A DNA stretch of 19,197 bases, taken from positions 1-19,197 of the IMG/VR virus record IMGVR_UViG_2667527789_000020, one strand, 5' to 3'. Every line of letters starts with the position of its first letter. Positions within the stretch are counted from its first letter, which is position 1. Under the pieces are notes generated by a model. That model was given only the letters and a program-made list of their open reading frames with translations. It ran no database searches and was not told where the DNA came from. The position numbers and the translations under genes are program-made. Source of the stretch: a virus. Its lineage: Duplodnaviria > Heunggongvirae > Uroviricota > Caudoviricetes. Shown here in pieces: positions 4,222-19,197 of this stretch.

Positions 4222-4806
4222 TCAACAATGAATTTTTAGTAATTGCTCCACAGTCATATTTTTAATTGCGCTCCGGTTTACAAGAGTCCAGCCTTGTTTC
4301 TCCAGATAAAACTGGAAGGTATCCAGGGTGCAGACCATTGCACCATCAGGAACGGTTTCAGTGAATTTGATATTGCCGTGTTCGTCGAGACGGATAACCA
4401 GGGTACGTCCGTCCCCGTGAATCATTTTGTCGGGAGACGGGGCGTTATTCTGGCGCAGTTCTTTCTCCATGCGATCGAACTCAGCGATGTAGGCTTCTTT
4501 AAATGCAGCGGCTTTTTTGCCGGTGAAGCCCATCACCAGGAAAACGAAGCCGTTTTTGGTGATTTGGTACATAGGGAGTTTGCGCCCGGTTGAGTCGGTA
4601 TATTCACTGGGCGAAAAATTTCGCTCAGTGAATTCTGCTGAACAGTCTAGACGTGAAATTTTTGCCAGTACATCTTTGTGTGGTTTCCGGAAATACTCGG
4701 CAACAGCTAAAGAGGATGTAACAGCACGCCCATTGGCGATAGTAATTTCAGGGTGAGAAAGGGCAGGGATAGTAGCCATGATGGCAGCCTCCATGATGAA
4801 TTTCAT
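4222..4806 (-). CDS. Rha-family phage regulatory protein (antirepressor-like)
   Basis: Core ITIANGRAVTSSLAVAEYFRKPHKDVLAKISRL...MYQITKNGFVFLVMGFTGKKAAAFKEAYIAEF is typical of the Phage_pRha domain. The six-frame ORF extends to 5073 but the first ~90 codons are compositionally non-protein-like and contain a terminator-like hairpin. Likely start is ATG at 4806 (SD-like GGTGGTGAG upstream) or ATG at 4779 (GGAGG, 8-nt spacer). Confidence 0.7.
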   Translation of the reverse strand: MKFIMEAAIMATIPALSHPEITIANGRAVTSSLAVAEYFRKPHKDVLAKISRLDCSAEFTERNFSPSEYTDSTGRKLPMYQITKNGFVFLVMGFTGKKAAAFKEAYIAEFDRMEKELRQNNAPSPDKMIHGDGRTLVIRLDEHGNIKFTETVPDGAMVCTLDTFQFYLEKQGWTLVNRSAIKNMTVEQLLKIHC

Positions 4807-4943
4807 TAACTCACCACCGGAGGTAGCAATCTCATGGGTGGTGAGACGCACAGGGTTGCTACAACCGGTCATCATGGAACCCGGCCAGCCTTGCGGCTGC
4901 CCTGCACGCCCCACCATAATCTGAATGTGGCTGTGCATTACGC

Positions 4944-4968
4944 ATAAAAAAACCGCCTGAGCGCGGTT
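4944..4968 (-). terminator. Candidate Rho-independent terminator on the minus strand
   Basis: Minus-strand RNA would form AACCGC / GCGGTT stem (6 bp, 6-nt loop) followed by a 7-U run (plus-strand A7 at 4946-4952). Lies between the DicF-like element and the Rha start. Confidence 0.4.
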
Positions 4969-5264
4969 ATGCGCCATGATGAACATCGGGGTAGCAATCC
5001 CGGCACCCGCTTTATGAGGTGCAGGTGCACTATAATTCCACCCGTTCTGGTTTTCAATAGCTACATTCAACATTTTCTCTTACCTTTCATCACCGAAGTG
5101 AACTTTGTCGATGCAGTGCCTGGTGCCTCCAGGTGACGTTAACCAGTTAACAATTAACGCCGGAATACAGAAGTATGCCCGTTACGCCCCGTAAAAGACC
5201 ACTTTACGGTTTTAACTGTTCCGCGTGCGCTTAGCCGCATTCACCGCATCACAAAATTCACTTT

Positions 5265-5923: not shown

Positions 5924-6006
5924 TTACAAATTAAAATTTAACTGGTCAACATGTTTATTATTAAATTTGTAATTGCGAGCTGTTGCATTAGTCCCAAAAT
6001 GGGACT
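5924..6006. promoter_or_regulatory. Candidate operator/promoter region (OL-like, divergent leftward promoter and higBA promoter)
   Basis: AT-rich. Inverted repeat TTACAAATT (5924-5932) / AATTTGTAA (5964-5972), and a second perfect palindrome AGTCCCA-aaa-TGGGACT (5990-6006) immediately upstream of higB. The TTACAAAT half-site recurs in the repressor/cro intergenic region. Confidence 0.4.
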
Positions 6007-6017
6007 ACTATACAGTT

Positions 6018-6320
6018 ATGAAGATTATCTCAGTTAAAACACTCAGGGATTTTTGGGCGGAGAATCCTGATGCAGAACAACCGCTAAGGGCATGGGTGGA
6101 TGAGGCGGCAAAAGCTGACTGGAAAAGCCCAGCAGACATTAAGGCACAATACCGAACGGCCAGTATATTGAAAAACCGGCGCGTGGTATTCAACATAAAA
6201 GGTAATCATTACCGTTTAATTGTTGCAATTGCGTATCAGCGAGGATGGGTATTTGTTAAATTCATCGGAAACCACAAGGAATACGATGCTATTGATGCTG
6301 ATACCATCGAACTGGAGTAA
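6018..6320 (+). CDS. higB: Type II toxin HigB (RelE/ParE superfamily mRNA interferase), 100 aa
   Basis: ...VVFNIKGNHYRLIVAIAYQRGWVFVKFIGNHKEYD parallels E. coli HigB (VFNVGGNELRVVAMV...HKEYD). Directly followed by an HTH antitoxin gene 2 bp downstream. The six-frame ORF starts at a TTG at 5973; ATG 6018 is preferred. Confidence 0.85.
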   Translation: MKIISVKTLRDFWAENPDAEQPLRAWVDEAAKADWKSPADIKAQYRTASILKNRRVVFNIKGNHYRLIVAIAYQRGWVFVKFIGNHKEYDAIDADTIELE

Positions 6321-6322
6321 GC

Positions 6323-6682
6323 ATGAACATCAAACCTATTCGTACAGAGCAAGATTATGAAGCCGCGTTGCGTGCTGTTGAACCCATGTTCGACAATGAG
6401 CCCGAAATTGACACGCCTGAGGGGGATTTTTTTGAGGTGATGTGTTTGCTAATAGAGGAATATGAAAAAAAACATTATCCCATTGAGCCACCATCCCCAA
6501 TTGAAGCTATAAGATTTCGCATGGAACAGCAGGGGCTGACTGTGAAAGATTTGGAACCCGCAATTGGGAAAAAAAATCGGGTTTATGAGGTGTTGAATGG
6601 TACCAGAAGCCTTACGTTACCAATGATTCGCCGTCTTCATAATCAATTTGGTATCCCCCTGGAAAGCCTGGTTGGATTATAA
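6323..6682 (+). CDS. higA: Antitoxin HigA (XRE-family HTH), 119 aa
   Basis: Acidic N-terminal part and C-terminal HTH (LTVKDLEPAIGKKNRVYEVLNGTRSLTLPMIRRLHNQFGIPLESLV). Toxin-first gene order with a 2-bp spacing is typical of higBA. Confidence 0.85.
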   Translation: MNIKPIRTEQDYEAALRAVEPMFDNEPEIDTPEGDFFEVMCLLIEEYEKKHYPIEPPSPIEAIRFRMEQQGLTVKDLEPAIGKKNRVYEVLNGTRSLTLPMIRRLHNQFGIPLESLVGL

Positions 6683-12912: not shown

Positions 12913-13138
12913 GCTGGCCTGAGGCCTTCTCAAATGTTGGTATTGCAATGGCGCTGGTGGTGTATTCGATTTGCCGCTGGGGATAAAAACGGTTTGCGGG
13001 GAAAGAAGAGTTAAGTAGAATTGCTGCGGGTGCCTGAGGCTGTCTGCCTCAGGCATGAACACCAAAAGGCAGATAGAGAAAGCCCCAGTTAACATTACGC
13101 GTCCTGTAAGACGCTCAACATTAATCTGAGGCATATGG

Positions 13139-14263
13139 ATGCGGATGAAAGAATTAAATAAATTCAGAGTGATAGACCTCTTTTGTGGGGCAGGTGGATT
13201 ATCTTATGGTTTTCTTCATGGAGAGATGTCTGACTACTTTGAAAGTATCCTTGCTATTGATAATAATGCTGCAGCTATAAATACCTACAATGCCAATTTT
13301 GGTTTGCATGGAGTTCAGGCAAATATTGAGGAGTGGGCATCCAGCAATACTGTTCCTGAGGCTGATGTGGTCATAGGTGGCCCCCCGTGTCAGGGATTCA
13401 GTTTATTGAATAAGAATCGTTATGGTGATCACCGAAGAGCATTGTGGGAGCCTTATATGGATGTCATTGAGCGTTCAAGGGCTTGCATGTTCGTCATGGA
13501 AAATGTCCCCGGATTGCTGATAAGCGATGAGTTTGCGGACATTACGTTTAGAGCGAAATCCATGGGCTTTATTCTGCTTAATCCAATGGTGTTGAATACT
13601 GCTGACTATGGAGTACCTCAGACAAGAAAACGAACGATAGCAATCGGTATCAAACGAGAACTCTTCGATGAGCATAGTATTCCGGCGTTCCCGCCAGCAC
13701 CAACGCATCGTTCCCCTGATAAGGATGTCGCTTTGCCTGAATGGGTCTGTACGCGTGATGCAATTGGTGACTTACCTGCTCCTGTTGGAACTGATATTCG
13801 TAATGAACTTCCTCCGCTGAACTTACATTTTGGGCGTAATCCCACACCTGTTTCTCTGGAGCGATATAAAGCGGTTCCACCAGGAGGTAACCGTTTCGAT
13901 TTACAGAAAAAAAGACCTGATATAACCCCGGCGTGCTGGCTAAAAAAGAAATCTGGAGGGACCGATTTGTTTGGACGTCTGTGGTGGGACAGACCTTCAG
14001 TAACGATTCGTACTGAGTTTTTCAAACCGGAGAAAGGGCGATATTTACATCCGGAAGAGGATCGGCCAATAACTCATCGTGAGGCAGCGAGATTAATGTC
14101 TTTTCCTGATAATTTCATTTTTACCGGTTCAAAAACTGAGATTGCAAAGCAGATCGGGAATGCTGTTCCACCGCTATTTGCGGCAAAAATCGCACAATAT
14201 GTGTATGGAGTTTTGCAGGGACGGTATAAGAATAACATCAGTAAGAATAGTCAAGCAGCCTGA
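13139..14263 (+). CDS. DNA (cytosine-5)-methyltransferase, modification subunit of a Type II R-M system (374 aa)
   Basis: Motif I DLFCGAGG (FxGxGG), motif IV GGPPCQGFS (catalytic PC), motif VI ENV, motif X-like QIGNAVPPLFAAKIA. ATG preceded by GAGG with a 7-nt spacer. Visibly more AT-rich than the flanking phage genes. Confidence 0.9.
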   Translation: MRMKELNKFRVIDLFCGAGGLSYGFLHGEMSDYFESILAIDNNAAAINTYNANFGLHGVQANIEEWASSNTVPEADVVIGGPPCQGFSLLNKNRYGDHRRALWEPYMDVIERSRACMFVMENVPGLLISDEFADITFRAKSMGFILLNPMVLNTADYGVPQTRKRTIAIGIKRELFDEHSIPAFPPAPTHRSPDKDVALPEWVCTRDAIGDLPAPVGTDIRNELPPLNLHFGRNPTPVSLERYKAVPPGGNRFDLQKKRPDITPACWLKKKSGGTDLFGRLWWDRPSVTIRTEFFKPEKGRYLHPEEDRPITHREAARLMSFPDNFIFTGSKTEIAKQIGNAVPPLFAAKIAQYVYGVLQGRYKNNISKNSQAA

Positions 14264-14276
14264 AGGAAATCCAGAA

Positions 14277-15154
14277 ATGAATGGAGATTTGGTTGACAGC
14301 ATAGTTGGTTTTGCTGAAGCCAGAAAGGAGTTTCATGCCCAATTGTTACTGAATACGCTCACAATTAATACTGCCGGAGTTGTTAGTAACGCAGATAGCA
14401 GTAACAAAAACAGTAAAGCTATAGCAAGAGAAATTGCTCGCTTCTTGCAGGCTGAAACGATTGGTGAACGTGTTGCAGGGCAAACATCTGGTAATCAGTT
14501 TGAGAGTATCTGCGCAGAGTTTATAAAAAAACCTTTTTTAAACTCAGCCACTTACGCCCTGGGAAATGGAATGTATATCAGGTTTCTGGTAGAAACAGAT
14601 TAGAGATAGCTAAATATGAACAATATGCCCATCTTATAGCATTGGATAGTGCTGCAAAAAGTAATCCTCAGCTAGCTGCTGCACTGGGGAGTGATTATAC
14701 GATTTCACCAGATATTATTGTTGAAAGAGAACCTGAATGCGATCAAGTTATCAACAGTCCTGAATTACTGGTGGATGATTCTGTTACCCGCATGTCAGCT
14801 CTCAGGAGTTCGAATGGTGGGAAACCAATATTACACGCAAGTATTTCCTGCAAATGGACAATAAGAAGCGACCGGGCCCAGAATGCTCGTTCTGAGGCAT
14901 TAAATCTTATTCGCAACCGTAAGGGAAATCTCCCTCATGTAATGGTTGTTACTGCTGAGCCTACTCCAAGTCGTCTGGCGTCTATTGCTCTTGGTACTGG
15001 TGATATAGATTGCGTGTACCATTTTGCGCTTTATGAACTTATATCAGCAGTTGAAATACTGGGGCTCAGCGATGCAGCTGACATGCTTTCCGTGATGGTT
15101 AATGGTAAAAGATTAAAGGATATTTCTGATCTTCCCTTGGATCTTGCAGTCTGA
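14277..15154 (+). pseudogene. Type II restriction endonuclease, Cfr10I/NgoMIV-like, reading frame split by a 1-nt shift in a homopolymer region
   Basis: N-terminal piece 14277-14603 (frame 3) and C-terminal piece open from 14504 to 15154 (frame 2) overlap around an A7 tract (14525-14531) and a T6 tract (14534-14539). The C-terminal piece carries SPD-X46-SCK-X13-E (SPDIIVERE...HASISCKWTIRSDRAQNARSE), matching the PD-X46-55-K-X13-E active-site arrangement of the Cfr10I/NgoMIV family. Starts 14 bp after the C5-methyltransferase stop. Joined length is about 290 aa, typical for this family. Confidence 0.6.
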
Positions 15155-16657: not shown

Positions 16658-17026
16658 ATGACCGAGCGCATAGAATTTGTTTTGCCTTACCCGCCGACGG
16701 TGAACACTTACTGGCGACGCCGTGGCAGCACATATTTTGTATCAAAATCCGGGGAGCGTTATCGCCGGGCAGTGGCACTTATTGTTCGCCAGCAGCAGTT
16801 GAAATTAAGCCTGTCCGGACGGCTGGCAATAAAAATTATTGCAGAACCACCGGATAAGCGCCGCCGTGACCTGGACAATATTCTGAAAGCACCGCTGGAT
16901 GCGCTGACGCACGCGGGGTTGTTAATGGACGATGAACAGTTTGATGAAATCAATATTGTACGTGGTCAGCCAGTATCTGGTGGACGGCTGGAAATAAGAA
17001 TTACAGAGGTGGGTGTGCATGAATAA
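16658..17026 (+). CDS. rusA: Holliday junction resolvase RusA (crossover junction endodeoxyribonuclease), 122 aa
   Basis: LPYPPTVNTYWRRRG...DKRRRDLDNILKAPLDALTHAGLLMDDEQ...GGRLEIRITEVG matches E. coli RusA (LPWPPSNNRYYR...[22 protein letters not shown]...GGRLELTITEMG), including the catalytic Asp cluster. Confidence 0.9.
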   Translation: MTERIEFVLPYPPTVNTYWRRRGSTYFVSKSGERYRRAVALIVRQQQLKLSLSGRLAIKIIAEPPDKRRRDLDNILKAPLDALTHAGLLMDDEQFDEINIVRGQPVSGGRLEIRITEVGVHE

Positions 17027-17708
17027 CCAGTATTTACAGTTTGTTCGTGAGCAACTCATGATTGCCACTGCAGATCTCAGTGGGTCGACAAAAGGCCAGC
17101 TGGAAGCCTGGCAGGAAAATGCCCTGTTCGATACAGGGCGTTACAGACGCAAAAAAATTCGTTACCGCGATGAGGTAACCGGAAAAATGATCACGCGGGA
17201 TAATCCCCCGATCCAGGGTAAACAATCACTGGCGAAAGGCTCATCAATTGCGCTGGTCAGTCCTGTTGAGTTTGCAACATCATCGTGGCGGCGTGCCCTT
17301 CTGGAACTGGAAGAACATCAGAAGGCGTGGTTGTTGTGGTGTTATGGCGGAAACATTTGCTGGGAGCATCAGATCGCGATAACGCAGTGGGTGTGGAGTG
17401 AATTTAAAACTCAGTCCGGCTCCAGAAAAATTGCAGTGAAAACGCTGGAGCGTGTGAAGAAGTTGATCTGGCTGGCGGCACAGGATGTCAGAGGATGGGT
17501 TACCGGGTGTGAGGTCTACCAGAGACAGGAGCTTGCCAGACTGTGTGGAGTTAAGCCTGATAACTGGAGCCATAATTATGCGAACTACTGGCGTGAGATG
17601 TGCGATATTTTTAAGCGTCTCGATAGAGAATCCTTGATTTGCTCCGTGAAAATAAGAGCGCAACAAAAAGCGACCTTTTCACGACGAGATATTGCAAAAG
17701 TCAATTAA
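17019..17708 (+). CDS. Putative late-gene antitermination protein Q (Qin/QuuQ-like), 229 aa
   Basis: ATG at 17019 overlaps the rusA stop (the six-frame ORF starts at GTG 17013). Position immediately after rusA and immediately upstream of a strong terminator is the canonical Q location. Family assignment is by position and size, not by recognised motifs. Confidence 0.55.
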   Translation: MNNQYLQFVREQLMIATADLSGSTKGQLEAWQENALFDTGRYRRKKIRYRDEVTGKMITRDNPPIQGKQSLAKGSSIALVSPVEFATSSWRRALLELEEHQKAWLLWCYGGNICWEHQIAITQWVWSEFKTQSGSRKIAVKTLERVKKLIWLAAQDVRGWVTGCEVYQRQELARLCGVKPDNWSHNYANYWREMCDIFKRLDRESLICSVKIRAQQKATFSRRDIAKVN

Positions 17709-17770
17709 ATCGCGTATGTTTCGTATAAATCTGATATTTTGCCGATTTTGTACACGATGGCAAAGTAAGA

Positions 17771-17797
17771 AAAAACCACCGCCAGGTGGTTTTTTTA
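17771..17797 (+). terminator. Rho-independent terminator (tR'-like) downstream of the putative Q gene
   Basis: AAAAA-ACCACC-gcca-GGTGGT-TTTTTTT: a 7-bp stem flanked by an A-run and a T7 run, 63 bp after the Q stop. Confidence 0.7.
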
Positions 17798-17919
17798 TGT
17801 CCGAAAATCTCGTCAGTACAGTAAACGCGCTGGTGGCGGTGAATACCGGTCTTTCAGCTTGCTGGCTTTTTTGACAAGAGTTATTGGTGTGTCACGTTAA
17901 CCGGAAAAGGGAAAAAGAC

Positions 17920-18117
17920 ATGCTGAAACAGCAGGATATGACCGAAACCGCCAGAGTGGTGTTTAATGAATTAAGCGTCACTGAACCGGCGACAGTCGGG
18001 GAGATTGCGCAGAATACTTATCTTTCACGTGAACGCTGCCAGTTAATACTGACCCAGCTTGTTATGGCGGGTCTGGCAGACTATCAGTTCGGTTGTTACA
18101 GACGCCTTCAGTCCTGA
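17920..18117 (+). CDS. Small putative winged-helix DNA-binding protein (65 aa)
   Basis: ATG at 17920 preceded by AAGGGAAAAAG; the six-frame ORF starts upstream at 17884. EPATVGEIAQNTYLSRERCQLILTQLVMAGL looks like a wHTH. Stop codon is embedded in a terminator. Confidence 0.45.
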   Translation: MLKQQDMTETARVVFNELSVTEPATVGEIAQNTYLSRERCQLILTQLVMAGLADYQFGCYRRLQS

Positions 18118-18127
18118 AGGCTTTTTT
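18104..18127 (+). terminator. Rho-independent terminator
   Basis: GCCTTCA-gtcc-TGAAGGC stem followed by TTTTTT. Overlaps the stop codon of the preceding small ORF. Confidence 0.65.
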
Positions 18128-18267
18128 ATTTGTGGTAAATGGGCGGCTGGTGGGTGTTAGGGGCACTCACCAGCCATCTGCTCATGCGTCCGGATCACAA
18201 GCAAACCTCAGGCCCACTGCTTTGCGCAAAAGCAGAATGAGCCTATCAGAGACAGGCTTAATGATCC

Positions 18268-19197
18268 ATGCTTAATACTGTAAAAATATCCAGTTGTGAG
18301 TTAATCAACGCCGACTGCCTGGAATTTATCCGGTCGTTACCCGAAAATTCTGTTGACCTGATAGTCACGGACCCGCCGTACTTTAAAGTGAAGCCTGAGG
18401 GCTGGGATAACCAGTGGAAGGGCGACGATGATTACCTGAAGTGGCTGGACCAGTGTCTTGCGCAGTTCTGGCGGGTGCTGAAACCTGCCGGAAGTCTTTA
18501 CCTGTTCTGTGGCCATCGCCTGGCATCTGATATCGAAATCATGATGCGTGAACGCTTCAGTGTGCTGAACCATATTATCTGGGCGAAGCCGTCCGGACGC
18601 TGGAACGGGTGCAACAAGGAAAGCCTGCGGGCGTATTTCCCCGCCACAGAGCGCATTCTGTTCGCGGAACATTATCAGGGGCCGTATCGTCCGAAAGATG
18701 CCGGGTATGAGGCGAAGGGCAGGGCACTGAAACAGCATGTGATGGCTCCGCTGATTGCTTACTTTCGTGATGCGCGTGCTGCCCTGGGGATAACGGCAAA
18801 ACAGATTGTGGATGCCACAGGAAAGAAAAACATGGTGTCGCACTGGTTCAGTGCCGGTCAGTGGCAGCTACCGAACGAAAGCGATTATCTGAAATTACAG
18901 GCGCTGTTTGCCCGGGTGGCAGAAGAGAAGCATCAGCGCGGTGAACTGGAAAAGCCCCACCACCAGCTGCTGGAGACGTATACTTCACTGAACCGGCAGT
19001 ATGCGGAACTGCAGAGTGAATATAAGCATCTGCGGCGGTATTTTGGCGTGACGGCGCAGGTGCCGTACACGGATGTGTGGACGCATAAACCGGTGCAGTA
19101 CTATCCCGGGAAACATCCGTGCGAAAAACCGGCAGAAATGCTGCAGCAGATAATCAGCGCGAGCAGTCGTCCGGGGGACCTGGTTGCAGATTTTTTC
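18268..19197 (+). CDS. DNA methyltransferase, beta class (N6-adenine or N4-cytosine), 3' end truncated by the window
   Basis: Open frame from ATG 18268 to the window end with no stop (so absent from the ORF track). DPPY motif (LIVTDPPYF) near the N-terminus and an AdoMet-binding-type motif beginning PGDLVADFF at the window edge; motif IV before motif I indicates the beta-class order. Confidence 0.85.
   Translation, partial: MLNTVKISSCELINADCLEFIRSLPENSVDLIVTDPPYFKVKPEGWDNQWKGDDDYLKWLDQCLAQFWRVLKPAGSLYLFCGHRLASDIEIMMRERFSVLNHIIWAKPSGRWNGCNKESLRAYFPATERILFAEHYQGPYRPKDAGYEAKGRALKQHVMAPLIAYFRDARAALGITAKQIVDATGKKNMVSHWFSAGQWQLPNESDYLKLQALFARVAEEKHQRGELEKPHHQLLETYTSLNRQYAELQSEYKHLRRYFGVTAQVPYTDVWTHKPVQYYPGKHPCEKPAEMLQQIISASSRPGDLVADFF

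Follow-up and report, generated by a model that had tools for sequence, protein, structure and literature searches.

The 19,197-nucleotide (nt) viral sequence IMGVR_UViG_2667527789_000020, analyzed over its full length and referred to here as the window, ends within a DNA methyltransferase (MTase) gene, and this locus raises the question of what such an enzyme contributes at the head of a prophage late region and how its production is controlled. An earlier note on this DNA had proposed a solitary MTase with a possible anti-restriction role. The likely product of the region is an orphan beta-class N6-adenine MTase of the M.EcoGII family, of which the N-terminal 88% is encoded here; its gene would be the first sizeable one of a Q-dependent late operon in a lambdoid prophage resembling Shiga toxin (Stx) phages, and the enzyme is proposed to act in anti-restriction and to be controlled by an RNA leader. 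This leader, new relative to the earlier note, has been conserved in phages from Aeromonas and from several genera of Enterobacterales, and it is absent from Rfam 15.

Class and Integrity of the Methyltransferase

18268..19197, + strand: M.EcoGII-family beta-class N6-adenine DNA methyltransferase, codons 1-310 of approximately 352, cut by the window end
18370..18381, + strand: DPPY, catalytic motif IV (residues 35-38), read directly from the sequence

The reading frame is open from the ATG at 18268 to the last base of the window at 19197, giving 310 codons with no stops, and approximately 42 codons lie beyond, in agreement with the statement in the earlier note that the gene runs off the window. 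The product matches Pfam family PF01555 (N6_N4_Mtase) over residues 29-310 (E = 7.1e-31; 108.3 bits, cutoff 26.7), with a full-length relative scoring 151 bits; the match reaches profile positions 1-189 of 221, indicating that the C-terminal end of the MTase is cut by the window. The window protein ends in VADFF, at the point where full-length homologues of 352 or 349 amino acids (aa) go on with FFMGSGST, which is motif I (FxGxG). The motif order is that of the beta class, with motif IV (DPPY) at the N-terminus, followed by the target-recognition domain and then motif I, most of which lies beyond the window. The PF01555 match, the motif order and the intact motif IV thus uphold the earlier description of a beta-class enzyme with a DPPY motif. 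Degeneration of the catalytic motif, which would have undermined that description, was looked for as well; DPPY is intact and all 136 invariant positions within residues 1-310 of a 36-member family alignment are kept in the window protein, and the motif is therefore not degenerate.

Membership of the Dam family (alpha class, GATC) is not indicated, since the motif order is reversed and PF01555 is the only Pfam match of the MTase. Its NCBIfam matches are beta-class models, every one under its cutoff, and the YhdJ equivalog NF008572 scores 116 bits against a curated cutoff of 292. A phmmer search of the PDB sequences with the MTase returned CcrM, M.BceJIV, M.MboIIA and M.RsrI (1e-25 to 1e-15), and the same four beta-class enzymes were the best PDB matches in a Foldseek search (1e-14 to 1e-11) with an AlphaFold2 model of the cluster representative, P0002. 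This model predicts a Rossmann core and a helical insert at residues 147-254 with moderate confidence (pLDDT, or predicted local distance difference test score, 68.9); its helices at 147-173, 177-184, 189-193, 204-223 and 231-254 have pLDDT of only 60-80 and are consistent with the published M.EcoGII-family model.

It could be argued that this copy is an inactive relic of a decaying prophage, as the same prophage carries a frameshifted endonuclease gene, deletion derivatives of the MTase exist elsewhere (L041 and L007), the 3′ end of the gene lies beyond the window, and a glycine (G197) is carried in the target-recognition region. However, the 310 codons contain neither stop nor frameshift, every invariant residue is kept, and the leader, terminators and Q gene described below are intact with scores like those of functional phages, making a relic unlikely.

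Relationship to M.EcoGII and Expected Target

M.EcoGII is a 349-aa beta-class enzyme with an N-terminal DPPY motif, a central target-recognition domain and a C-terminal FxGxG motif, borne on a prophage of E. coli O104:H4 C227-11 (PMC5778455). It methylates adenine whatever the surrounding sequence, reaching up to 99% of adenines in vitro and 86% in vivo, and blocks 12 of 12 six-cutters tested as well as six four-cutters in a supplementary assay (PMC5778455). The window protein is identical at 293 of 310 positions to the M.EcoGII sequence printed in Table S1 of the SUPREM paper (PMC11551740), and at 297 of 310 (approximately 96%) once three evident optical character recognition errors are mended. 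The printed sequence was machine-read with errors, and the identity rests on it together with the link through Escherichia phage 1720a-02; sequence look-up with two corrected versions of M.EcoGII gave no exact match. Phage 1720a-02 encodes the best match among deposited phages (99.0% over 310 aa), followed by Stx2a phages at approximately 98%, and its enzyme has been called "very similar" to M.EcoGII (PMC5778455). The enzymes of the relatives and the window protein fall into one 90%-identity cluster of 5,932 members, and the product is annotated in E. coli relatives as a 352-aa "DNA-methyltransferase". At the nucleotide level, the 1.4-kb segment 17800-19197 matches 2,237 of 5,426 complete E. 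coli genomes, with at least 80% of the segment present in 1,902.

Residues 1-180 of the window protein are the same as in M.EcoGII, and all 13 differences fall between 181 and 263, within the target-recognition domain and the linker; one of them is G197, where the family has a near-invariant serine. This distribution lends some weight to the idea of a sequence-specific orphan MTase with an epigenetic or regulatory role, in the manner of Dam or CcrM, as do the site specificity of the related enzyme M.PflMI (PMC11551740) and the name "site-specific DNA-methyltransferase" that NCBI gives to many family members. That name, however, is a generic label from automatic annotation, and M.PflMI is without the charged linker that the window MTase has in addition to its approximately 96% identity to M.EcoGII. 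Ancestral enzymes reconstructed for the M.EcoGII clade are still non-specific (PMC11551740) although their divergence far exceeds that of the window copy, and homologues from O111 Shiga toxin-producing E. coli with 92-94% similarity are listed as "nonspecific" (PMC6602927). A sequence-specific enzyme is therefore improbable. The earlier note had left the target as unknown, which is not borne out: the identity to M.EcoGII, the non-specific ancestors and the O111 homologues together give the well-founded expectation that the window MTase methylates any adenine.

RNA, in the form of phage or host transcripts or neighboring phage tRNAs, might instead be the main substrate in vivo. M.EcoGII also methylates single-stranded DNA, single-stranded RNA and RNA:DNA hybrids in vitro, phage tRNA genes often directly follow the MTase gene, and the MTase mRNA itself has a conserved structured leader. 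Against this, the RNA activity of M.EcoGII is approximately 100-fold below its DNA activity (V0 0.12 vs. 11.1; PMC11551740 Table S3) and many family members are without adjacent tRNA genes, such that a principal role on RNA is highly unlikely. Judged from sequence, the MTase itself is a known, ordinary enzyme, belonging to the M.EcoGII family, orphan and late; the activity and expression of this copy are predicted from its relatives.

A Conserved Structured Leader Abuts the Start Codon

18133..18270, + strand: conserved structured leader RNA abutting the MTase start codon (covariance model R1, 145.9 bits, E = 1e-37)

The MTase gene is preceded by a small open reading frame (ORF) and a 150-nt spacer, which was aligned across phages of E. 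coli, Shigella (SfV), Klebsiella, Citrobacter, Hafnia, Providencia and Morganella. The spacer is better conserved than either flanking protein; in the most distant phages aligned, the small ORF product and the enzyme have 48% and 62% identity, respectively, and the spacer still contains long invariant runs and is of near-fixed length. In the proposed, hand-curated structure, a stem P0 (UGGGC/GCCCA) closes a three-way junction whose other two arms are the long hairpin P1 and the hairpin P2; further 3′ come hairpin P3, the single-stranded GAGCCUAUCAGAG segment and finally the AUG. Across sequences, this single-stranded segment reads GAGCCUAUCA(A/G)A, followed by the start codon.

Among 30 variants, 90% of alignment cells are paired in the proposed structure, compared with 27-45% when the partners are slid by 1-3 columns, and one pair occurs in three Watson-Crick forms (CG 10, UA 10, AU 9). 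With 58 distinct model-aligned sequences, 86.4% of cells are paired vs. 33-42% slid, the covariation score is 0.464 vs. 0.150 in shuffles (reached by 0 of 500) and at most 0.104 slid, and 33 of 34 pairs have compensatory changes, with the caveat that this alignment was fitted to the model's own structure and so favors it. An independent RNAalifold run on the 58-sequence alignment also yielded P0, P1, P3 and the inner part of P2; of its 18 pairs, 17 have compensatory changes. The single-sequence fold has z = -4.8. Read from the opposite strand, the G-U wobbles U19·G38 and G21·U36 would become A·C mismatches, indicating that the folded strand is that of the mRNA sense. A pairing of the P2 loop (GGAUCA) with UGAUCC just 5′ of the AUG, seen in the single-sequence fold, is unsupported across sequences (57% paired; 100 of 500 shuffles reach the covariation score). 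Taken as an RNA structure, the predicted leader is well supported.

The exact 14-mer AAATGGGCGGCTGG from the leader was found in 120 viral contigs, 68 of them with the element in 38 variants, nearly all ending at the ATG, and the covariance model gives one match per E. coli-type locus, always abutting the ATG. Diverged leaders precede the MTase in Serratia phage OS31 (58 bits) and in Klebsiella phage Kpn74 (57 bits), where P1 is wholly rewritten as GCUACAGCAUG/CAUGCUGUAGC, as well as in the N15-like phage YDC107_1 (34 bits) and Aeromonas phage PhAER-5 (27 bits, or 64 with a second model). A search with the MTase family alignment gave only loci of at least 93% identity, and the divergent set was obtained with the Kpn74 and YDC107_1 enzymes as queries. 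Among the 128 viral contigs found through these enzymes, the first model detected the leader in 58 of 72 and 29 of 56 loci, respectively, with two more added by the second model, and the leader ends at the start codon in most. It was not found in the P2-like phage phiO18P, where the enzyme lies between holin and lysin, nor in several groups at 58-60% identity.

The leader in the window matches no Rfam 15 family, either at the gathering score or at E <= 1, and six divergent loci gave no match at their leader positions. The anti-small RNAs AgvB and AsxR were considered as its identity and ruled out, being 51-60 nt long and located 3′ of cargo genes (PMC4104026), as were the Pas small RNAs, which are located by esterase and holin genes. 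The motif is absent from the main text of a survey of 224 motifs (PMC5737381), the leader is not described in the searched literature on prophage small RNAs and structured-RNA surveys, and a paper on helper-embedded satellites makes no mention of methyltransferases.

Three decayed variants of the module were also observed. At L041:2145-2282, an internal deletion has joined the leader directly to the enzyme's C-terminal portion; in phiSTEC1575-Stx2k, the enzyme is replaced by a 237-aa "HTH" (helix-turn-helix) ORF with a weak match to the leader in front of it (L007:3213-4048); and in PhiR5_1 (L008), the small ORF is kept and the leader and enzyme are both lost.

Late Region Context and Orphan Status

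17013..17708, + strand: Q antiterminator gene, 231 aa as called and 229 aa in RefSeq relatives (PF06323 Phage_antiter_Q, E = 3.7e-83)
17770..17797, + strand: first intrinsic-terminator-like hairpin after Q, candidate tR′ (terminator scan)
17920..18117, + strand: small ORF, 65 aa, possibly winged-helix (phrog_331, 4e-38)
18104..18131, + strand: second intrinsic terminator, with a T run after GCCTTCAGTCCTGAAGGC; it overlaps the small-ORF stop codon (terminator scan)

The MTase start is located 560 nt 3′ of the Q gene, the counterpart of which is annotated as "bacteriophage antitermination protein Q" in L001, L002 and L004, and the MTase follows Q in every relative examined. This confirms the position at the head of the late region proposed in the earlier note; in lambdoid phages, "morons" are classically inserted behind the Q-antiterminated PR′ (PMC4104026). 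Two hairpins form in the predicted fold of the 71 nt at 17730-17800 (-25.7 kcal/mol, z = -5.9), and SfV has an annotated terminator at the place equivalent to 17770-17797. By analogy, 17718-17800 is a candidate short pR′-tR′ transcript like lambda 6S RNA or StxS; the same segment (+ strand), of which the second hairpin is the terminator, has a weak isrK-like Rfam match (E = 0.1). The stem of the terminator at 18104-18131 has compensatory changes in alignment A3 (pairs 16-31, 17-30 and 18-29).

The genes that follow the MTase lie beyond the window, and beta-class enzymes are common in Type II systems, such that the MTase could be the modification half of a restriction-modification (R-M) system with its endonuclease just past the window end. 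However, none of 13 annotated relatives has an endonuclease gene adjoining the MTase, which is what a Type II R-M system would call for, although in the window itself the DNA past the MTase is cut off; the neighbors in these relatives are tRNAs, stx2AB, other cargo, or holin and lysin genes. In L001, the MTase is followed by tRNA-Ile/Arg/Arg and then stx2AB, in L002 and L004 by tRNAs and then other cargo, and in cdtI, SfV, Serratia OS31, Citrobacter phiNP and Hafnia yong2 directly by holin and lysin. The prophages most similar to the window, L002 (84% coverage, 97.5% identity) and H17 (83%, 96.1%), are of the non-endonuclease type; L002 adjoins yccA, as the terminal integrase gene of the window also suggests for the window, has tRNA genes next after its MTase, and has no stx. 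In addition, M.EcoGI and M.EcoGII are treated as orphans in the literature (PMC6602927). An R-M partner is thus extremely unlikely, and the solitary status proposed in the earlier note holds in these 13 relatives, with the small ORF and Q as the upstream neighbors.

The late region of L002 contains two more methyltransferase genes, one at L002:27264-27950 in the slot occupied by stx in Stx phages and one at L002:33891-34826 inside the lysis cassette, suggesting that phages of this type can carry three or more.

The small ORF has only sub-threshold Pfam matches (TrmB at 0.0024, MarR_2, DprA_WH and HTH_24) and is annotated in some records as a "TrmB family transcriptional regulator". The MTase starts approximately 150 nt 3′ of it in ten records with coordinates that were compared. 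Of 57 phage records with the small ORF, 55 are also listed with the MTase, and the other two have lost or replaced the enzyme, and the small ORF product may on this sequence evidence be a regulator or partner of the MTase. An obligatory partnership between small ORF and leader was considered and rejected: Serratia OS31 has the leader without an annotated ORF homologue, and Kpn74 and YDC107_1 have the leader and are not among the tblastn matches of the small ORF, indicating that the ORF is not required for the leader.

Proposed Mechanism and Role of the Leader

On the simplest reading of the gene position, the MTase would be expressed late and depend on Q, and the phage genome would be methylated ahead of its packaging. 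In the lysogen, the MTase would be silent, as late transcripts would end at the terminators at 17770-17797 and 18104-18131 unless Q modifies RNA polymerase, and after induction the enzyme would be produced alongside the lysis and morphogenesis proteins. A homodimer would flip out adenines and methylate N6 with little or no sequence preference, with the helical HTH-containing target-recognition domain and the charged linker binding nucleic acid non-specifically. Replicated phage DNA would then be heavily modified with N6-methyladenine when packaged, which would protect it in the next host from restriction enzymes of Type I and Type III and from many of Type II; an anti-restriction role was proposed for the M.EcoGII family by its characterizers (PMC5778455). 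M.EcoGI and M.EcoGII leave no trace in the lysogen methylome and slow growth when overexpressed (PMC5778455), and the O111 homologues of M.EcoGII are likewise silent in lysogens (PMC6602927). Tight control of expression would be needed because constitutive expression of the prototype harms the cell, and the leader at 18133-18270 may limit or time translation of the enzyme.

Several points weigh against this account. Anti-restriction by the M.EcoGII family during phage infection is a proposal, and modification by M.EcoGII lowers plasmid transformation of non-restricting E. coli by 4-5 orders of magnitude (PMC5778455), suggesting that very heavy methylation could be a liability. The 13 substitutions relative to M.EcoGII are all confined to the target-recognition domain and linker, where G197 replaces a serine at least 90% conserved in the family. 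The last 42 MTase codons, with most of motif I, are outside the window, and orphan status was judged from relatives. A sigma-70 consensus scan of the + strand from Q to the MTase found no promoter, so that pR′ was not located (a candidate picked by eye, TTGCAA-17-TATGTT at 17693-17721, was under the scan threshold and was set aside). Approximately 30% of the more distant MTase-family loci searched have no detectable leader, and the function of the leader is pure inference.

The leader probably acts as a cis-regulatory element for a toxic MTase. A translational control element is favored because the enzyme is toxic if constitutive, the leader ends at the AUG, and most E. coli-type copies have no recognizable Shine-Dalgarno sequence before the MTase. 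We tentatively propose, with confidence a little short of evenly balanced, that the approximately 135-nt leader represents an undescribed class of cis-regulatory RNA dedicated to M.EcoGII-family phage MTase genes, in which a near-invariant junction core and covarying stems may sense S-adenosylmethionine or S-adenosylhomocysteine, or bind the enzyme or the small upstream protein, to gate translation.

The prototype of the M.EcoGII family is already characterized and sold as a reagent, and the window enzyme adds little to it; the leader, not the enzyme, is the part worth follow-up. Approximately 40% of complete E. coli genomes have the MTase gene, often with stx2 directly downstream of it, and M.EcoGII is harmful if constitutive and silent in lysogens, with the mechanism of its control unexplained in the literature examined. 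The leader and the fixed position behind Q and two terminators provide a concrete handle on this control, and if the leader does bind a ligand it would be a new phage-borne riboregulator.

The C5-Cytosine Methyltransferase Cassette and Other Elements

13139-14263: C5-cytosine MTase (PF00145, 3e-54)

The earlier note had also credited the prophage with two methyltransferases of different chemistry, and this is confirmed by the matches of the C5-cytosine enzyme to PF00145 and of the amino-MTase to PF01555. Its description of the former as part of an R-M cassette is correct as far as gene content is concerned, with the C5 MTase followed by an NgoMIV-family endonuclease (14142-15154), but the endonuclease gene is split in two frames by a frameshift near 14526. 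Compared with the intact copy of E. coli 2014C-3051 (L004:19717-20595), one G is missing before an A-run, giving TTTATA-AAAAAACC in place of TTTATAGAAAAAACC. From the sequence, the nuclease is probably inactive, or else the frameshift is a homopolymer sequencing error. Because of this frameshift, the prophage would carry two effectively solitary methyltransferases.

The 5′ end of the C5 MTase ORF is overlapped by an Rfam match to the sok antitoxin RNA at 13028-13208 (+ strand; 61 bits, slightly over the gathering score). In relatives that do not carry the R-M cassette, this position is occupied by a hok/sok module, suggesting that the cassette was inserted beside or into hok/sok. On the - strand, Rfam matches to C4 antisense RNA (4834-4921) and isrK (4946-5022) lie inside the 5′ part of an ORF at 4222-5073 (- strand), which is a 283-aa Rha-family regulator in RefSeq relatives and the start of which may be mis-called; the region 4834-5022 (- strand) resembles an immunity module of the P1 c4/antirepressor type. 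A HigB/HigA-type toxin-antitoxin pair is located at 5973-6682, flanked by the Rha-like gene and the repressor region, as taken from the annotation of the homologous region of L002.

Comparison with Known Systems

Cis-regulatory 5′ leaders, including riboswitches, the targets of T4 gene 32 and regA, and C-protein control of R-M systems, resemble the MTase leader by analogy only, in lying directly 5′ of a start codon. Riboswitch-type leaders likewise combine a conserved junction core with variable, covarying stems, again as an analogy; unlike known riboswitch or autoregulatory leaders, the MTase leader matches no Rfam 15 family.

The enzyme has the catalytic Rossmann core in common with CcrM (6pbd), M.BceJIV (8urk), M.MboIIA (1g60) and M.RsrI (1eg2), however these are sequence-specific, have only approximately 20% identity to it, and have target-recognition parts that cannot be aligned with residues ~116-280. 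The adenine methyltransferases T4/T2 Dam, P1 Dam and VT2 Dam, and promiscuous alpha-class enzymes such as Hia5, are, like the window MTase, phage-borne, without a cognate nuclease and presumed to act in anti-restriction. Their alpha motif order is opposite to that of the window MTase, they are mostly GATC-specific, and their target-recognition domains are unrelated.

The closest likeness is to M.EcoGII and its paralogue M.EcoGI (Murray et al. 2018, PMC5778455), with M.EcoGII having the beta-class motif order, the central HTH-containing target-recognition domain, the charged linker, and a prophage-borne, orphan gene; it differs in having 349 aa and the tail …DLIV, whereas full-length relatives of the window type have 352 aa and the tail …DLVSQNG. 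Phages 1720a-02 (KF030445), Stx2a_1447 and WGPS2 encode enzymes with 98-99% protein identity to the window MTase. Phage 1720a-02 and the Stx2a phages carry stx2 downstream, in contrast to L002, the closest whole-prophage relative of the window, which has no stx, and they contain after Q the same module of small ORF, terminator, leader and MTase.

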